Assembly (NCBI GenBank): GCA_001799895.1
Contig: MGUI01000051.1
Coordinates: 1-32,000, forward strand
Direction: 5' to 3'
Length of the DNA stretch: 32,000 nt
Source of the DNA: Elusimicrobia bacterium GWD2_63_28
Lineage (GTDB): Bacteria > Elusimicrobiota > Elusimicrobia > Elusimicrobiales > UBA9959
Shown here: positions 11,997 through 20,041 of the stretch, in pieces
Layout: every line of letters begins with the position of its first letter
Position numbering within the stretch: position 1 is the stretch's first letter
Notes under the pieces: model-generated
Seen by the model: only the letters and a program-made list of their open reading frames with translations
What the model was told of the DNA's origin: nothing
Databases searched by the model: none
Program-made: the position numbers and the translations under genes

Positions 11997-12025
11997 TTGA
12001 CATCTATTTGGCTATTTGGCAGAAT
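11997..12025 (+). promoter_or_regulatory. Sigma70-type promoter of the first ArsR operon, with a tandem 8-mer in the spacer
   Basis: TTGACA (11997-12002), 17 nt spacer, CAGAAT (12020-12025). The spacer holds a perfect direct repeat CTATTTGG CTATTTGG (12004-12019). TCTATT (12003-12008) and AATAGA (12023-12028) form an inverted pair. Confidence 0.5.
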
Positions 12026-12032
12026 AGAGGAT

Positions 12033-12323
12033 ATGAAGGACAATATATTGGAAGTTTATGGCATGGAGGCGGCGGCGTTCAAGGCGCTGGGACACCCTAC
12101 GCGCCTTTTTATCGCCCACCAGCTCGGCAAACGAGACACCTGCGTCTGCGAGCTTACCGCCATGGTGGGTGATGATATCTCAACCGTCTCCAAGCACCTG
12201 TCGGTGCTGCGCGCCGCGGGCATCGTGGATTCTGTAAGGAAAGGCAACCAGATAATTTACCGGCTTAAGCTGCGCTGCGTGCTGAATATGAGCGTCTGCG
12301 CGAAATTCGGGAAGGGGAAATAA
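12033..12323 (+). CDS. arsR: ArsR/SmtB family metalloregulator (copy 1)
   Basis: ATG 12033 follows AGAGGA. 96 aa. 'FKALGHPTRLFIAHQL', the 'DTCVCELT' CVC metalloid-site motif and 'STVSKHLSVLRAAGIV' are typical winged-helix ArsR features. Confidence 0.85.
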   Translation: MKDNILEVYGMEAAAFKALGHPTRLFIAHQLGKRDTCVCELTAMVGDDISTVSKHLSVLRAAGIVDSVRKGNQIIYRLKLRCVLNMSVCAKFGKGK

Positions 12324-12324
12324 C

Positions 12325-13626
12325 ATGATCTGGAAAGACGAGTGGAAATGGCTTACCGGTTTCGTAACGGTCTTCTTTGTGCTGTATTTCCTCCCCGTGG
12401 GCTCGGCCCGGTTCGACGGGGCTATAACCGAGGCGCTGGAACTGACCAAGTGGTACACGCGGGAGCACGTGGTGCTCTGCCTCATCCCGGCCCTGTTCAT
12501 AGCCGGCGGTATAGCCGCCTTTGTCAGCCAGTCAGCGGTAATGAAGTATTTCGGGGCCAAGGCTAATAAATTCCTCTCTTACGGCGTGGCCTCGGTATCC
12601 GGCACCATCCTGGCGGTCTGTTCCTGCACCGTGCTGCCGCTGTTCGCGGGCATCTACAAGCGCGGCGCGGGCCTGGGCCCGGCCATTGCCTTCCTCTATT
12701 CCGGCCCGGCCATCAACGTGCTGGCCATAGTGCTGACGGCCCGCATACTCGGCTTCGAACTGGGGGCGGCCCGCGCCATAGGCGCCGTGGTTTTTAGTAT
12801 CGTCATCGGGTTGGCCATGCATTTCATGTTCAGGCATGAGGAGGCGGCCAAGGCCGCGGCGCAGGCGGACCTGCCCGAGCCTGAGGTCAAGCGCCCGCTC
12901 TGGCAGACCTCCCTCTATTTCGCCTCCATGGCCGCGGTGCTGGTATTCGCCAACTGGGCGTACGCCGAAGCCTCCGACCCCGTATTTTATGCCGTATACA
13001 AGATAAAGTGGCCGCTTACGGCCTTCTTTGCGGCGTCATTGGGCCTTATGCTCAAGGTCTGGTTCGGTGCTAGCGGCCTGCGCCTGACACTGTCGGCCAT
13101 CCCCGCTGTATTGCTGGCCTTGTTCATGCCGGACCTGCCCATCCTTTCCTTCTCGGCGGGCTTTATCGGCCTGTCCTGGGTGCTTAATTCTTCCGGCGAG
13201 GGGGAACTGGCCGACTGGTTCTCCTCCTCCTGGGACCTTTCCAAGCAGATATTCCCGCTGCTCATCGGCGGCGTGCTGGTGTCGGGCTTCCTGCTGGGCC
13301 GTCCCGGTCACGAGGGCGTGATCCCTTCTGAGTGGGTGGCCTGGGCTGTGGGCGGCAATTCCTTCTCGGCCAACTTCTTCGCTTCCATAGTGGCGGCCTT
13401 CATGTACTTCGCTACGCTTACCGAGATACCGATACTGCAGGGGCTTATCGGCTCTGGCATGGGCAAGGGCCCTGCGCTCACGCTGCTATTGGCGGGCCCG
13501 GCGCTGTCGCTGCCCAGCATGCTGGTGCTCAAGACCGTGATGGGCGTTAAAAAGACCGCCGCCTACGTGGCGCTGGTTATAATAATGTCCACCTTCAGCG
13601 GCATGTTCTTCGGAGCTTTCTTTTAA
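12325..13626 (+). CDS. Polytopic permease, COG0701/ArsP-like, with an intramembrane CxC pair
   Basis: 433 aa with about 10 or more hydrophobic segments. 'ILAVCSCTVLPLF' resembles the CSC motif recalled for the ArsP methylarsenite permease. The gene follows arsR by 1 nt. Confidence 0.65.
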   Translation: MIWKDEWKWLTGFVTVFFVLYFLPVGSARFDGAITEALELTKWYTREHVVLCLIPALFIAGGIAAFVSQSAVMKYFGAKANKFLSYGVASVSGTILAVCSCTVLPLFAGIYKRGAGLGPAIAFLYSGPAINVLAIVLTARILGFELGAARAIGAVVFSIVIGLAMHFMFRHEEAAKAAAQADLPEPEVKRPLWQTSLYFASMAAVLVFANWAYAEASDPVFYAVYKIKWPLTAFFAASLGLMLKVWFGASGLRLTLSAIPAVLLALFMPDLPILSFSAGFIGLSWVLNSSGEGELADWFSSSWDLSKQIFPLLIGGVLVSGFLLGRPGHEGVIPSEWVAWAVGGNSFSANFFASIVAAFMYFATLTEIPILQGLIGSGMGKGPALTLLLAGPALSLPSMLVLKTVMGVKKTAAYVALVIIMSTFSGMFFGAFF

Positions 13627-13635
13627 GGAGGAAAT

Positions 13636-17587: not shown

Positions 17588-17595
17588 GAGGCGCT

Positions 17596-18015
17596 ATGAA
17601 GATACTTTTCCTCTGCACGGGTAATTCCTGCCGCAGCCAGATGGCCGAGGGCTGGGGTAAGAAACTCCTGTCCGGCAAGGCGGAGGTGTTTTCCGCCGGC
17701 ACCAACCCCGGCACGGTAGATCCCCAGGCGATAAAGGTGATGGCGGAGGCCGGCGTGGATATTTCCGGTCACCGCTCCAAGCACGCTTCCGAATTCAAGG
17801 ACGTGGCCTTCGACCTGGTGGTGACGGTCTGCGACAAGGCCCGCGAGAGCTGCCCCGTCTGGTTCGGCAAGGCGGAGAAACTGCACAAGAGTTTCGAGGA
17901 CCCGCCGCACCTGGCCAAAGAGGCCAGGAGCGAGGAAGAGGCGCTGGCCCATTACCGCCGCGTGCGCGACGAGATAAGGGATTTCGTGGCGGGCCTGCTG
18001 AAAGGAGATAAATAA
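17596..18015 (+). CDS. arsC: Arsenate reductase, LMW-PTP / thioredoxin-coupled type
   Basis: 139 aa with RBS AGGAGG. '[18 protein letters not shown]' is the CX5R P-loop. The '[10 protein letters not shown]' Cys pair sits at the spacing seen in pI258-type ArsC. Confidence 0.9.
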
Positions 18016-19073
18016 TGGACGGAGTAATGAAGAAGCTGTCTTTTCTGGACCGCTATCTCACCATGTGGATCTTCCTGGCCATGGGCGCGGGCGTGGGGCT
18101 GGGCTGGCTTTGGCCGGTTGCGGTGGCGGACTTCAATGCCGCCTCCAGCGTGGGGACCACTTCCATACCGATAGCCATCGGCCTGATACTGATGATGTAT
18201 CCGCCGCTCGCGAAGGTGAAGTACGAGGAAATGCACCGCGTCTTTGCCAATAAGAAGGTGCTGGCGCTGTCGCTGGCGCAGAACTGGCTGGTAGGCCCGG
18301 TGCTGATGACCGCCCTGGCCATCCTGTTCCTGCGCGACAAGCCGGAGTATATGGTGGGCCTGATAATGATAGGCCTGGCGCGCTGCATAGCCATGGTGAT
18401 AGTCTGGAACGACCTCGCCCGCGGCGACAGGGAATACTGCGCGGGGCTGGTGGCTTTCAACTCCGTCTTCCAGGTGCTGTTCTTTCCCGTCTACGCCTGG
18501 TTCTTCATCACGCTGGTGCCGGGCTGGTTCGGCCTCGAGGGCGCGGCCGTGAATATCACCATGGGCGAGATCGCCAAAAGCGTTTTCATCTACCTGGGCG
18601 TCCCGTTCATAGCCGGCATACTGACCCGGTTCTCGCTGATCAAGGCCAAAGGCCGGGAGTGGTATTCGGAGAAATTCATTCCCGTCATAAGCCCTATCAC
18701 GCTGATAGCGCTGCTTTTCACGATAATAGTTATGTTCTCCATCAAAGGCGAGAACATAGTGCAGGTGCCGCTCGACGTGGTGCGGATAGCCGTCCCCCTG
18801 CTGGTCTATTTCGTGCTGATGTTCCTGGCCTCGTTCTGGATGAGCCGCAAAGCCGGGGCCGACTACCCGGAATCGGCTACGCTGTCGTTTACGGCAGCGT
18901 CCAACAACTTCGAGCTGGCCATCGCGGTGGCCATAGCCACCTTTGGCATAAGCCACGGGGCGGCCTTCGCCGCCGTCATAGGCCCGCTGGTGGAGGTGCC
19001 GGTGCTCATAGGCCTGGTGCATGTCTCGCTGTGGATAGGGCGGCGCTGGTACGGCACGCAGCAGGGTGGTTGA
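18015..19073 (+). CDS. acr3: ACR3-family arsenite efflux transporter
   Basis: 352 aa with about 10 TMs. '[13 protein letters not shown]' and '[16 protein letters not shown]' (conserved Cys) are typical of ACR3. The ATG shares 1 nt with the arsC TAA. ATG 18027 is an alternative start. Confidence 0.9.
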
Positions 19074-19129
19074 AATCCTTTCAAGGATATTGTGAAATAG
19101 GGGTGTACTTACAGTTCAAGGGGGGAAAT

Positions 19130-20041
19130 ATGAAACATGGAGCAAACCGGCTGCTGTGCGCCGGGATCCTGCCGGCTTTGCTGCTGGCGGGCTGTTCGCG
19201 CAGGAACGAAGCTACGGTCGGGACGCCGGCCAACCCGCTGGTGGTGGTGCTGTCTCCGGCCCACGTGCCGTCCTCTCCGGACGCGCTGGGCGTAATACAG
19301 AGCCGGCTGGAGGCCGCCAGCGGGCTTTCGGTGCGGCTGGACGCGGCGCAGAGCCCCGCCGCCGCCATAAACGCCTTTTCCACGGGGCAGGCCGACGCCG
19401 GGCTGCTGACCCTGGACGAGTTCCTTGTGGCCAGGGAGGAATACAAGGTCAAAGCGGAGCTGCAGGCCCTGCGCCGCGCGGGGCTGTCGGATTATGAAGG
19501 GGTGCTGCTTACCCGCATAAGCGGCGGCGCCGCCAACGTGGAGGAACTTGCCGGCAAGAAAGTGGGCTTTGTCGGCCCTTATTCGGTCAGCGGCTTTACC
19601 CTGCCGGCCATACACCTGGAAAAAGCCGGGGTCAGGGCGCAAGTAGACTTCTCCCTCAGCCACGAGGCGGTGCTGAAGAAGCTCCTTGCCGGAGAGGTGC
19701 TGGCCGCGGCTACCTATGCCAGGCAGGTTTCCCGCGATCCCGGCCTGAAGGTGCTTGCGGTTACGGGCAGGGTGCCCAACGAGCCGCTGGTGATGCGCCG
19801 AGGTCTTGCCGCCGACAAGCGAGAGGCCCTGAAGGCGGCTTTCATGAGCCTGCCCTCCACGCCCGAAGGCCGCCAGGCCCTGGGTGAGGTGGCCGACATC
19901 ACCGGCTTCAGGCACGTGCAGGAAGGTGTTTACCGCCCGCTGCACGACCTGCTGCGCTCCGAGGGCAAGGCTGTTTATGACCTGGTACCGGACGGCTGGG
20001 ACATACAGAAACTCAACCAGCCGTATGAGCAGGGCCTTTAA
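19130..20041 (+). CDS. Lipoprotein, PhnD/SsuA-like periplasmic substrate-binding protein
   Basis: In-frame ATG 19130 gives MKHGANRLLCAGILPALLLAGCS with lipobox LAGC. 'LVVVLSP...', 'GKKVGFVGPYSVSGFTLP' and 'VPNEPLVMRRGL' resemble phosphonate-type SBPs. The upstream part of the track ORF overlaps acr3. Confidence 0.6.
   Translation: MKHGANRLLCAGILPALLLAGCSRRNEATVGTPANPLVVVLSPAHVPSSPDALGVIQSRLEAASGLSVRLDAAQSPAAAINAFSTGQADAGLLTLDEFLVAREEYKVKAELQALRRAGLSDYEGVLLTRISGGAANVEELAGKKVGFVGPYSVSGFTLPAIHLEKAGVRAQVDFSLSHEAVLKKLLAGEVLAAATYARQVSRDPGLKVLAVTGRVPNEPLVMRRGLAADKREALKAAFMSLPSTPEGRQALGEVADITGFRHVQEGVYRPLHDLLRSEGKAVYDLVPDGWDIQKLNQPYEQGL

Follow-up and report, generated by a model that had tools for sequence, protein, structure and literature searches.

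In the stretch of DNA analysed here (32,000 nucleotides of contig MGUI01000051.1 from Elusimicrobia bacterium GWD2_63_28, hereafter the window), the mercury methylation genes hgcA and hgcB are enclosed by arsenic resistance genes, and hgcA lies back to back with a regulatory gene, arsR2, across a short spacer that holds a perfect palindrome. We consider it probable that ArsR2 co-represses hgcAB and the arsenic detoxification genes at this common palindrome, within an ars super-operon of a groundwater lineage of the Elusimicrobia. Why microbes carry hgcAB and what switches these genes on is a long-standing question, which bears on predicting where methylmercury is formed. A first reading of the same DNA (the original prediction) had described hgcAB as embedded between two operons, each headed by an arsR gene, and had proposed that expression of hgcAB, and perhaps its native chemistry or its supply of thiols and electrons, is tied to metalloid stress. 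That interpretation is partly supported overall; the regulatory tie of hgcAB to arsenic is well supported comparatively and has been shown experimentally in another organism.

In the proposed arrangement the ancestral cluster, as deduced from relatives, would have run on one strand in the order arsR1-arsP-arsE-(DGC)-arsF-arsG-slot-arsC-acr3, the slot being preceded by an internal promoter that carried the ArsR2 operator. In the window this slot is occupied by hgcB and hgcA, which are inverted, and then by arsR2 and a HesB-like gene. A dimer of ArsR2 would bind the 26-bp palindrome over two back-to-back -10 boxes and the arsR2 start codon and would block both the arsR2-hesB-arsC-acr3-phnD operon and hgcAB; As(III) on the cysteines of ArsR2 would release both, and hgcAB would be turned on together with arsenate reduction and arsenite export. 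The left operon would stand under a separate repressor, ArsR1, with its own, different operator, and would supply a thiol-bearing ArsP-type permease and a thiol relay formed by ArsE, ArsG and ArsF.

Open reading frames were listed for the 32-kb window and their products scanned against Pfam and NCBIfam; some proteins were also matched by sequence to PDB entries. All 13 genes of 12033-20041 were found at the coordinates, on the strands and with the identities originally predicted, and all of the cysteine motifs quoted for them are present in the products. The features of the control region, of hgcAB and of the right operon are:

16825-16863, no strand assigned: shared control element, with the arsR2 -35 box TTGCTC (16825-16830), a 17-bp spacer and the -10 box TATAAT (16848-16853)
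16784-16840, minus strand: 18-codon upstream open reading frame (uORF), which begins at the ATG in the hgcA-side operator arm and whose TGA overlaps the hgcA ATG (ATGA)
15795-16787, minus strand: hgcA, corrinoid protein of 330 aa, full-length match to NF040863 (412.5 bits, cutoff 275)
15505-15798, minus strand: hgcB, 2x[4Fe-4S] ferredoxin with C-terminal CC, NF040864 (125.3 bits, cutoff 99)
16861-17247, plus strand: arsR2, 128 aa, winged-helix HTH_5, 7 Cys, NF033788 (76.8 bits, cutoff 55)
17279-17587, plus strand: HesB/IscA-like protein, Fe-S_biosyn (E 9e-10), motifs GCCG and CGDGCSCGH
17596-18015, plus strand: arsC, thioredoxin-coupled, low-molecular-weight phosphatase type, TIGR02691 (129.8 bits, below the equivalog cutoff of 174.3)
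18015-19073, plus strand: acr3, arsenite efflux permease, TIGR00832 (451.6 bits, cutoff 282.8)
19130-20041, plus strand: PhnD-like periplasmic lipoprotein, Phosphonate-bd (E 8e-38)

The right operon diverges from hgcA across 73 bp, as originally described. Within this spacer lies the perfect 26-bp palindrome CATATATGC-N8-GCATATATG (16838-16863), the putative ArsR2 operator, which encloses TATAAT and is seen once in the window versus 0 occurrences expected by chance. Compared with relatives that had been retrieved through HgcA and not through the palindrome sequence, its 20-nt core is identical and the rest of the spacer is unalignable. The palindrome is the sole conserved part of the 73-bp control region, beside a -35 box TTGnnn kept at a fixed distance, exactly 17 bp upstream of TATAAT in all lineages. 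The arsR2 ATG follows TATAAT by 7 nt and lies within one palindrome arm, so the arsR2 mRNA is probably leaderless; the other arm holds an ATG on the hgcA side. Read on the opposite strand, the palindrome contains TGnTATTAT, an extended -10 box that faces hgcA and is followed by this ATG 8 nt later.

How hgcA is joined to the operator differs among the relatives. In L095, L099, L103 and L121 hgcA starts at this palindrome ATG, so that roughly 20 bp separate the start codons of hgcA and arsR2 and the -35 box of arsR2 falls within hgcA. The window, L085 and L106 have a coupled uORF of 14-18 codons, whose TGA overlaps the hgcA ATG, and no Shine-Dalgarno sequence before hgcA, while in L110 and L119 the operator-arm ATG shares the reading frame of hgcA. 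This ATG is missing from those relatives in which a GGAG Shine-Dalgarno sequence precedes hgcA. This covariation of ATG, uORF and Shine-Dalgarno sequence supports an hgcA transcript that starts at the palindrome. A structured RNA leader or riboswitch before hgcA was considered and rejected (the fold of 16775-16846 on the minus strand has z = -0.21, and there is no Rfam match).

The neighbourhood, on whose conservation in related genomes the original prediction had staked itself, is kept: the divergent arsR2-hesB-arsC-acr3 operon, with or without phnD, adjoins hgcAB in every examined Elusimicrobia relative at 62-91% HgcA identity. In a deeper clade (L088, L002) the divergent operon is arsR-arsP-arsE-arsC-acr3 instead, with a different ArsR and, at the same place, a different inverted repeat, TTCGTTAT-N8-ATAACGAA, which is followed by TATAAT and, 6 nt later, by the hgcA ATG. 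The operator therefore changes along with its ArsR, and in either clade lies on the hgcA promoter. When metagenomes were scanned with the core pattern, 43 loci were obtained, of which 20 have island genes and a G+C content of at least 0.54, all 20 with the core between arsR2 and hgcA; among contigs with a G+C content of at least 0.54, 20 of 21 core matches lie between these two genes. The other 23 matches have no island genes nearby, all but one are on low-G+C contigs (0.24-0.48), and they were treated as chance or unrelated matches. One unrelated contig with a G+C content of 0.64 (L126, approximately 8990-9009) carries a perfect palindrome of 44 nt, ACGCGACTAACG-ATATGCTATTATATGCATAT-CGTTAGTCGCGT, built on the same 20-nt core, with no island genes in its vicinity.

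Regarding the identity of HgcA, the cap-helix motif NVWCAAGK (GINVWCAAGKGTF) is present and invariant in the alignment of homologues, the C-terminal half is hydrophobic, corresponding to the membrane domain, and the protein is 100% identical to the HgcA of Elusimicrobia metagenome-assembled genomes (MAGs) such as GCA_003518445.1 and GWD2_63_28. HgcB has two CX2CX2CX3C motifs. Most HgcA proteins carry an N-terminal extension with CC or CU, where U is selenocysteine (Haft 2022, bioRxiv 10.1101/2022.07.06.499078). This extension is not present in the window, where the upstream in-frame sequence (to 17063) is without Cys and enters arsR2; it is dispensable as a criterion for membership of the HgcA family. 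The island layout recurs on more than ten independent contigs from different samples, and it is therefore not an assembly artefact.

The original prediction had pointed to an arsR gene beside hgcAB in Pseudodesulfovibrio mercurii ND132, and published work bears this out (Goñi-Urriza et al. 2020; Gionfriddo et al. 2022/2023). In that strain hgcAB is controlled by a protein named ArsR2, the arsR3-acr3-arsC and arsR5-arsP-arsE-DGC (DND132_2311-2314) operons are induced along with hgcAB by As(III) and As(V), and the hgcAB transcript level was no predictor of methylation (Gionfriddo et al., bioRxiv 10.1101/2022.10.17.512643). The two systems are alike in that an ArsR/SmtB regulator directly adjoins hgcAB and in that the two co-induced operons of ND132 correspond to the right and left operons of the window. 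They differ in that the ND132 arsR2 precedes hgcAB on one strand and in one transcript, with no ars genes adjacent, whereas the arsR2 of the window diverges from hgcA, with a palindromic operator common to both, and all three units are contiguous. The ND132 regulator is not a close homologue either, with Cys47/49/86/88 against CVC in helix 3 and a C-terminal PCC cluster in the window protein. The proposal that hgcAB expression is tied to metalloid stress fits these experiments, the shared operator, and the single-strand ars clusters of other phyla described below. If arsenic controls hgcAB broadly, arsenic geochemistry would predict mercury methylation in aquifers and sediments. What the window adds is a defined 26-bp cis-element on back-to-back promoters, together with a candidate repressor.

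The association of hgcAB with arsenic genes was scored in 80 species-representative hgcA loci from at least nine phyla, using homologues of 11 flanking proteins. An ars structural gene lies within 10 kb of hgcA in 33 of the 80 loci, ArsC or Acr3 in 30, ArsR in 35, and ArsP, ArsE, ArsF, ArsG or DGC in 11; 38 loci have neither arsR nor any ars gene within this distance. The density of ArsC/Acr3 is 2.1 per 10 kb within the first kilobase and approximately 0.03 per 10 kb beyond 4 kb. As an internal distance control, the 75 flanks of at least 9 kb were compared at 0-3 kb and 6-9 kb by Fisher test:

ArsC/Acr3: 21 flanks at 0-3 kb, 1 at 6-9 kb (p = 2e-6)
ArsR: 17 flanks at 0-3 kb, 2 at 6-9 kb (p = 3e-4)
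ArsP/E/F/G/DGC: 5 flanks at 0-3 kb, 2 at 6-9 kb (not significant)

The proximity of arsC, acr3 and arsR to hgcAB thus exceeds chance. The co-occurrence that the original prediction had proposed to score holds for these three, whereas it is not significant for the ArsP/E/F/G/DGC set, whose link to hgcAB may be secondary to the fact that hgcAB sits in ars operons generally.

In other phyla hgcAB is found in the middle of ars clusters on a single strand. The gene orders of two of them are:

L022 (MAG labelled Cyanobacteriota): arsR-arsR-arsP-hgcA-hgcB-acr3-arsC-arsE-arsF-arsG
L037 (Bacteroidales): arsR-arsE-arsF-arsG-arsP-arsC-hgcA-hgcB-acr3

Similar clusters occur in L061 (labelled Bacteroidetes), in L042 (Bacteroidales) and in L058 and L067 of the Planctomycetes. 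From phylum to phylum the gene order and the subtype of ArsR vary, which points to repeated recruitment rather than to one inherited block. Among the 80 loci, acr3 directly follows hgcB in at least ten, and an ArsP-type gene directly precedes hgcA in two (L022, L061). In L022 the ten genes (8048-14246) are separated by gaps of at most 92 bp, and hgcAB is embedded more tightly than in the window.

Several observations weigh against shared repression. The TATTAT box facing hgcA has no convincing -35 box, and the promoter scan gave no sigma-70 site on the hgcA strand. Variants of the palindrome precede arsR2 in loci without hgcAB, so the palindrome would be primarily an autoregulatory site of arsR2, and hgcA may merely have landed beside it. 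The closest solved relative of ArsR2 is CadC, a sensor of Cd, Pb and Zn. Some close relatives (L086, L087, L001) do not have the left operon, which, being convergent with hgcAB, cannot be co-transcribed with it; with only 5 bp between the stop codons of arsG and hgcB, and no intrinsic terminator found between the two genes, transcription of one could interfere with the other. The lack of significance for the ArsP/E/F/G/DGC flanks in the survey belongs here as well.

Two of these points, the weak -35 region and the palindromes away from hgcAB, also speak for adjacency without coupling, i.e., that hgcAB was inserted in a recombination-prone slot of the ars cluster with an arsenic-independent promoter of its own, and that the neighbourhood records history. 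The region downstream of arsG is indeed highly variable among relatives, holding arsM, a CopZ-like gene, a set of genes for TetR and a resistance-nodulation-division (RND) efflux system, a P-type ATPase gene or hgcAB; nearly half of the surveyed loci (the 38 given above) have no arsenic gene nearby; and transcript level did not predict methylation in ND132. Against this, hgcA is within 0-73 bp of the operator in every lineage and the operator alone is conserved in the spacer, a second clade has a different pair of regulator and operator at the same position on hgcA, hgcAB stands mid-cluster in the tightly packed single-strand clusters of other phyla, ars genes decay strongly with distance from hgcAB, and control by an ArsR has been shown experimentally in ND132. 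We regard mere adjacency as unlikely and keep to shared repression by ArsR2.

The origin of the arrangement is indicated by Elusimicrobia loci without hgcAB, which were found via the genomic contexts of ArsF homologues and have the same genes as one co-directional operon:

L132 and L137: arsR1-arsP-arsE-DGC-arsF-arsG-arsM-arsC-acr3
L133: arsR1-arsP-arsE-arsF-arsG-arsR2-arsM-arsC-acr3
L134: arsR1-arsP-arsE-DGC-arsF-arsG-arsR2-arsM-arsC-acr3
L135: arsR1-arsP-arsE-DGC-arsF-arsG-arsP2-arsR2-arsM-hesB-arsC-acr3
L136: gene resembling the CopZ N-terminus in the slot; no hgcAB, arsR2, hesB or phnD
L138: left operon only

Among the MAGs of the arsM type are GCA_026388155.1, GCA_001800245.1, GCA_036752705.1 and GCA_021811315.1. 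Each of the two operons of the window resembles one half of an ancestral ars super-operon that had an internal promoter controlled by ArsR2; the description of two enclosing operons was correct as far as the gene order goes, whereas the relatives show a single co-directional unit with a variable slot. In the window hgcAB is inverted and located immediately upstream of the ArsR2-controlled promoter, and arsM is missing from the slot. The methyltransferases in the slot pass the arsenite methyltransferase model (272-283 bits, cutoff 263). The arsR2 orthologues before arsM keep the same promoter and a palindrome variant, and their annotated N-terminus, 'MRIIAYM', is the translated palindrome. The flanks of L136 are the window's own (ABC2/Cupin on the left; FadL, WD40, cysE and cysK on the right). 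Its slot protein (8271-8783) has 170 aa, is rich in Cys, reaches 65.8 bits with CopZ_Nterm_CC, below the cutoff of 100, and has an N-terminal CCSGPSCCG motif that resembles the N-terminus of ArsM.

Occupation of the slot alternates. Among distinct Elusimicrobia loci, arsM was found in 0 of 20 with an intact hgcAB and a contiguous stretch from arsR2 to arsC, and in 6 of 7 with arsC-acr3 and without an intact hgcAB (Fisher p = 2.4e-5, ignoring phylogeny and counting at the level of loci only). One locus, L130, holds both in part: arsM lies between arsR2 and hesB, and the hgcAB locus (3221-4940) is decaying: hgcA survives as an 88-aa C-terminal remnant joined to the operator, and hgcB is frameshifted and without its C-terminal CC. 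In single-gene trees the arsM-type loci fall inside the diversity of the hgcAB type. In the same kind of tree the ArsR2 of L130 groups with an hgcAB-carrying neighbour and its Acr3 with arsM-type loci, a conflict that suggests recombination and a second, independent event; these neighbor-joining trees carry no support values and are affected by recombination, and they give only a hint of more than one switch. Debris resembling insertion sequences is also present in L130.

This natural swap series, in which the same operon has hgcAB, arsM, a CopZ-like gene or an empty slot and in one case a decayed hgcAB next to arsM, points to a function that HgcAB might replace or exclude, and it makes the original suggestion of a link to the native chemistry or thiol supply of HgcAB more concrete. 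In its strongest form, HgcAB and ArsM would be interchangeable methylation cassettes under one As(III)-sensing repressor and operator, and HgcAB would natively be a corrinoid-dependent module that methylates a metal(loid). Its substrate would be arsenic or antimony, or it would make a methylated toxin, the product being handled by ArsP and the thiol relay through export or self-protection; mercury methylation would be a side or parallel activity, and environmental methylmercury a by-product of arsenic stress. Besides the counts, the remnant genes of L130 with its seemingly recombinant history and the position of the arsM-type loci in the trees, this is favoured by the ArsP-type permease directly before hgcA in L022 and L061 and by the proposal, drawn in parallel with arsM, that methylmercury serves as an antimicrobial (Lin et al. 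2023, PMC10083202). However, ND132 formed no detectable mono- or dimethylarsenicals from As(III) or As(V), which argues against the simplest version of such a link. In the Bacteroidales locus L072 hgcAB is preceded, at 0.7 kb, by a genuine arsM (338 bits), which speaks against exclusivity, and others have reported arsM adjoining hgcAB or elsewhere in hgcA-carrying MAGs (including PMC7438021). The exclusivity may further stem from just one or two evolutionary events, and the counts cover loci, not whole genomes. Compared with known arsM operons, arsM of the relatives holds the same position under the same ArsR2 and operator, whereas HgcAB, a corrinoid protein plus a ferredoxin, is unrelated to ArsM, is encoded on the opposite strand and is known only to methylate Hg(II). 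We regard the exchange of equivalent methylation cassettes as improbable.

The association as such has precedents. The original prediction gave the full enclosure of hgcAB by arsenic genes as not known to have been described, which overstates its novelty; hgcAB flanked by acr3, arsC, arsM and arsR in diverse MAGs has been in print since 2020 (McDaniel et al. 2020, Fig. 6, PMC7438021), in many hgc-carrying MAGs from Rifle, hgcAB and ars genes are accompanied by a gene for an ArsR-like regulator (Gionfriddo et al., bioRxiv 10.1101/2022.10.17.512643), and the link was repeated by Zhang et al. 2023 (PMC10349881). The flanking of hgcAB by arsenic genes is common to these MAGs and the window, and probably the same population of Rifle-type Elusimicrobia MAGs is concerned. 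In the text available to us, neither McDaniel et al. nor Gionfriddo et al. mention the arsP/arsE/DGC/arsF/arsG side, a shared operator, an ancestral single operon or the alternation with arsM. Likewise, in the literature searched we found no description of arsP/E/F/G clusters around hgcAB, of the operator as a palindrome on back-to-back -10 boxes, or of the super-operon with its locus-level alternation of hgcAB and arsM, and for the arsP/E/F/G/DGC side and the architecture the claim of novelty stands.

As a sensor, ArsR2 has ELCVCEL in helix 3 and a C-terminal cluster of the form PCC...GVCV...NC. ELCVC is the classical As(III) site of the R773 ArsR; the third Cys of that protein is absent in the ArsR proteins of the window, and the helix-3 Cys pair is present. 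In the match to CadC (1u2w), ELCVCEL is aligned to ELCVCDI. The regulators could accordingly sense soft metals in general (Hg(II), Cd(II), Zn(II)), making this a broad island for thiophilic metals in which hgcAB responds to mercury. The kinship with CadC, the 7 Cys of ArsR2 including the C-terminal cluster, and the partial, below-cutoff matches of the ArsP_1-family permease of the left operon to the models of SaoE and of the SO_0444 Cu/Zn efflux transporters would suit this, as would the suggestion of Gionfriddo et al. (bioRxiv 10.1101/2022.10.17.512643) that Zn, Cd or Pb could be the preferred metals of the four-Cys site in the ND132 ArsR2. It is nevertheless quite unlikely, considering that ArsR2 heads arsC and acr3, in relatives also arsM, all of them arsenic-specific, that its helix 3 carries the classical site, and that no mer or metal P-type ATPase genes were found in the window.

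ArsC aligns to the thioredoxin-type enzymes of B. subtilis and pI258 (1jl3, E 1e-27; 1ljl, E 3e-25), and its catalytic Cys triad is in place, with the P-loop CTGNSCRS (CX5R) and a C-x6-C pair equivalent to Cys82/Cys89. Like a classical arsR-arsC-acr3 or arsRBC operon, the right operon combines repressor, reductase and pump, with arsR first and presumably autoregulated through an inverted repeat at the -10 box and start site, and with a CVC sensor. It differs from the classical operon in having hgcA on the other side of the operator, in its extra HesB-like and PhnD-like members, and in its place as the distal half within a longer ars cluster.

The family to which the HesB-like protein belongs is narrow and mainly from Elusimicrobia (36 homologues, nearly all at 69% identity or more), with an invariant GCCGP motif and two C-terminal Cys. 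The protein does not qualify as an A-type Fe-S carrier (IscA/HesB/SufA): it reaches 50.2 bits with TIGR00049 (cutoff 58.8) and stays below all NCBIfam cutoffs, and its pattern of GCCGP plus C...C, not the CGCG triad, supports membership of the fold family only. The gene is also found beside arsM in L135 and L130, hence it is not specific to hgcAB. The protein is a candidate As(III)- or thiol-binding chaperone.

For the PhnD-like lipoprotein the best solved relative is the arsenate-binding ArrX (6x6b), a weak match at E 1e-6, and the protein is possibly a binder of arsenate or another oxyanion. The gene is present in 10 of 12 hgcAB-carrying Elusimicrobia loci with sequence beyond acr3 versus 0 of 6 hgcAB-free loci. 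The PhnD-like fold, the match to ArrX and the arsenic gene context recall the AioX/ArxX/ArrX proteins (Badilla et al. 2018, PMC5908839), from which the window protein differs in the weakness of the match and in having neither an equivalent of Cys106 nor a kinase or regulator partner; no transporter, kinase or regulator partner was found near the gene in the window. An AioX-type arsenite sensor was therefore rejected, the mature protein being without Cys. A trio of binding protein, kinase and regulator does follow the ars operon in one hgcAB-free relative, L137. There, in the region 11994-14582, a radical SAM/SPASM gene comes after acr3 and is followed by genes for a periplasmic binding protein, a HisKA_3 kinase and a GerE-type regulator, a layout like AioXSR/ArrXSR. 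A radical SAM/SPASM gene also follows acr3 in the arsM-type loci L132 (11576-12805) and L133 (12050-13273); it resembles a maturase of a tungsten cofactor (273 bits, cutoff 380).

The left operon, which converges on hgcB, comprises the following features:

11997-12032, plus strand: arsR1 promoter with putative ArsR1 operator, -35 box TTGACA (11997-12002) and -10 box CAGAAT (12020-12025)
12033-12323, plus strand: arsR1, ArsR/SmtB family, NF033788 (81.7 bits, cutoff 55), CVC in helix 3, head of the operon
12325-13626, plus strand: ArsP_1-family permease, 433 aa, Pfam ArsP_1 (E 3.7e-70), CSC at residues 99-101
13636-13878, plus strand: ArsE, small cytoplasmic thioredoxin of the MTH895/ArsE type, TIGR00412 (98 bits, cutoff 62), CPKC
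13880-14245, plus strand: DGC-domain protein, Pfam DGC (E 7.8e-29), 8 Cys, presumed Zn binder
14226-14810, plus strand: ArsF-family protein, NF040494 (91.2 bits, cutoff 60), RCYSC, N-terminal membrane anchor at residues 14-33
14807-15499, plus strand: ArsG-family membrane protein, NF040495 (220.5 bits, cutoff 200), SPCP and FCP, DsbD/CcdA superfamily

The arsR1 promoter (10 of 12 matches in the promoter scan) is spanned, over spacer and -10 box, by an imperfect inverted repeat, CTATTTGGC-N6-GCAGAATAG (TCTATT/AATAGA). The arsR1 ATG lies 7 nt past the -10 box, and the mRNA is thus probably leaderless. The layout TTGACA-CTAyTTGGC-wATTTG-GyArAATAG-7nt-ATG is kept in L085, L106 and L127. No second ArsR2 operator was found at the left operon at up to 3 mismatches, so the two operons use different operators. 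In ArsR1 the helix-3 motif reads TCVCEL and is accompanied by a C-terminal C-x7-C pair; orthologues head the same operon in L132-L138, L022 and L058.

The left operon looks like a trans-membrane thiol-reducing relay, with transfer predicted to run from ArsE through ArsG to ArsF. A thioredoxin in the cytoplasm, a CcdA-like protein in the membrane and a second, exported thioredoxin form the standard arrangement for transfer of reducing power across the membrane. In ArsG, SPCP and FCP are invariant across 8 homologues, 6 of which match Pfam DsbD_2 (best E 1e-23); ArsG itself gave no match to solved structures by sequence, and its link to DsbD/CcdA is provided by these homologues. In ArsF, RCxxC is invariant across 11 homologues and the signal anchor is common to them. 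The AlphaFold model of ArsF consists of a transmembrane helix, a linker and a thioredoxin fold, with a confidence (pLDDT) above 94 for residues 84-192, and its top PDB fold matches are all thioredoxins. The permease obtained no match to a curated ArsP equivalog in the NCBIfam scan; the ArsP_1 fold and the CxC pair are present, and in C. jejuni ArsP such a vicinal Cys pair in a membrane helix is required. Two ArsP_1 paralogues alternate behind arsR1, one of 433 aa, as in the window (12325-13626), and one of about 320 aa (approximately E 1e-15 to the window protein), as seen in a comparison with L103, L117, L125, L132, L137 and L138; both occur in L135 and L136.

According to the account in PMC9144182 of work by Chen, Zhang and Rosen (2019, Environ Sci Technol 53:6182), arsEFG of Shewanella putrefaciens 200 act in the nitro-reduction of synthetic aromatic arsenicals and in their efflux. 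ArsE, ArsF and ArsG of the window pass the NCBIfam cutoffs built on that system, and in both cases the genes follow an arsR. The window differs in having a DGC gene between arsE and arsF and, in addition, an ArsP_1 permease. Whereas the published role concerns aromatic arsenicals, the sequence features of the window point to a thiol-reducing relay, and the hosts of window-type clusters are anaerobes of pristine groundwater.

The left operon and hgcB are joined tail to tail, their stop codons being 3-5 bp apart in the window and in L085, and the operon adjoins hgcB in most subclades with at least 69% HgcA identity. The DGC gene is an optional member, absent from L085, L133, L136 and L138. That the flanking genes serve HgcAB, the ArsP-type permease or Acr3 exporting methylmercury and the ArsE-ArsG-ArsF relay keeping Hg-binding thiols reduced, is very unlikely, because relatives without hgcAB have the left operon and acr3 in unaltered form and the left operon is missing from several hgcAB-carrying relatives, even though we know of no methylmercury exporter, acr3 directly after hgcB and ArsP-type genes directly before hgcA recur in the survey, the arsP-arsE-DGC operon of ND132 is co-induced with hgcAB, and the window permease has a CxC motif. 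As candidate partners, the ArsP-type permease, the ArsE-ArsG-ArsF relay and the HesB-like and PhnD-like proteins offer a further handle, several of them having homologues in the genetically tractable ND132.

Across the 32-kb window no mer genes were found, as originally stated, nor any tRNA or mobility genes or Rfam matches. A mobile island was considered and rejected for the window, which has no tRNA and no integrase or transposase among the Pfam matches, the G+C content being unremarkable across the island. On the right the island is adjoined by genes for an outer-membrane channel of the FadL/TodX type, a bacterial WD40 propeller and a 336-aa open reading frame without Pfam match (20113-22394, minus strand; 22508-23518, plus strand), neighbours that are kept in all close relatives, including the hgcAB-free L136. 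A cysE-like (Hexapep) and cysK-like (PALP) pair (26493-28051, plus strand) lies approximately 6.5 kb to the right of the thiol-rich island; this flank is kept in L085 and L136 and probably reflects just synteny.

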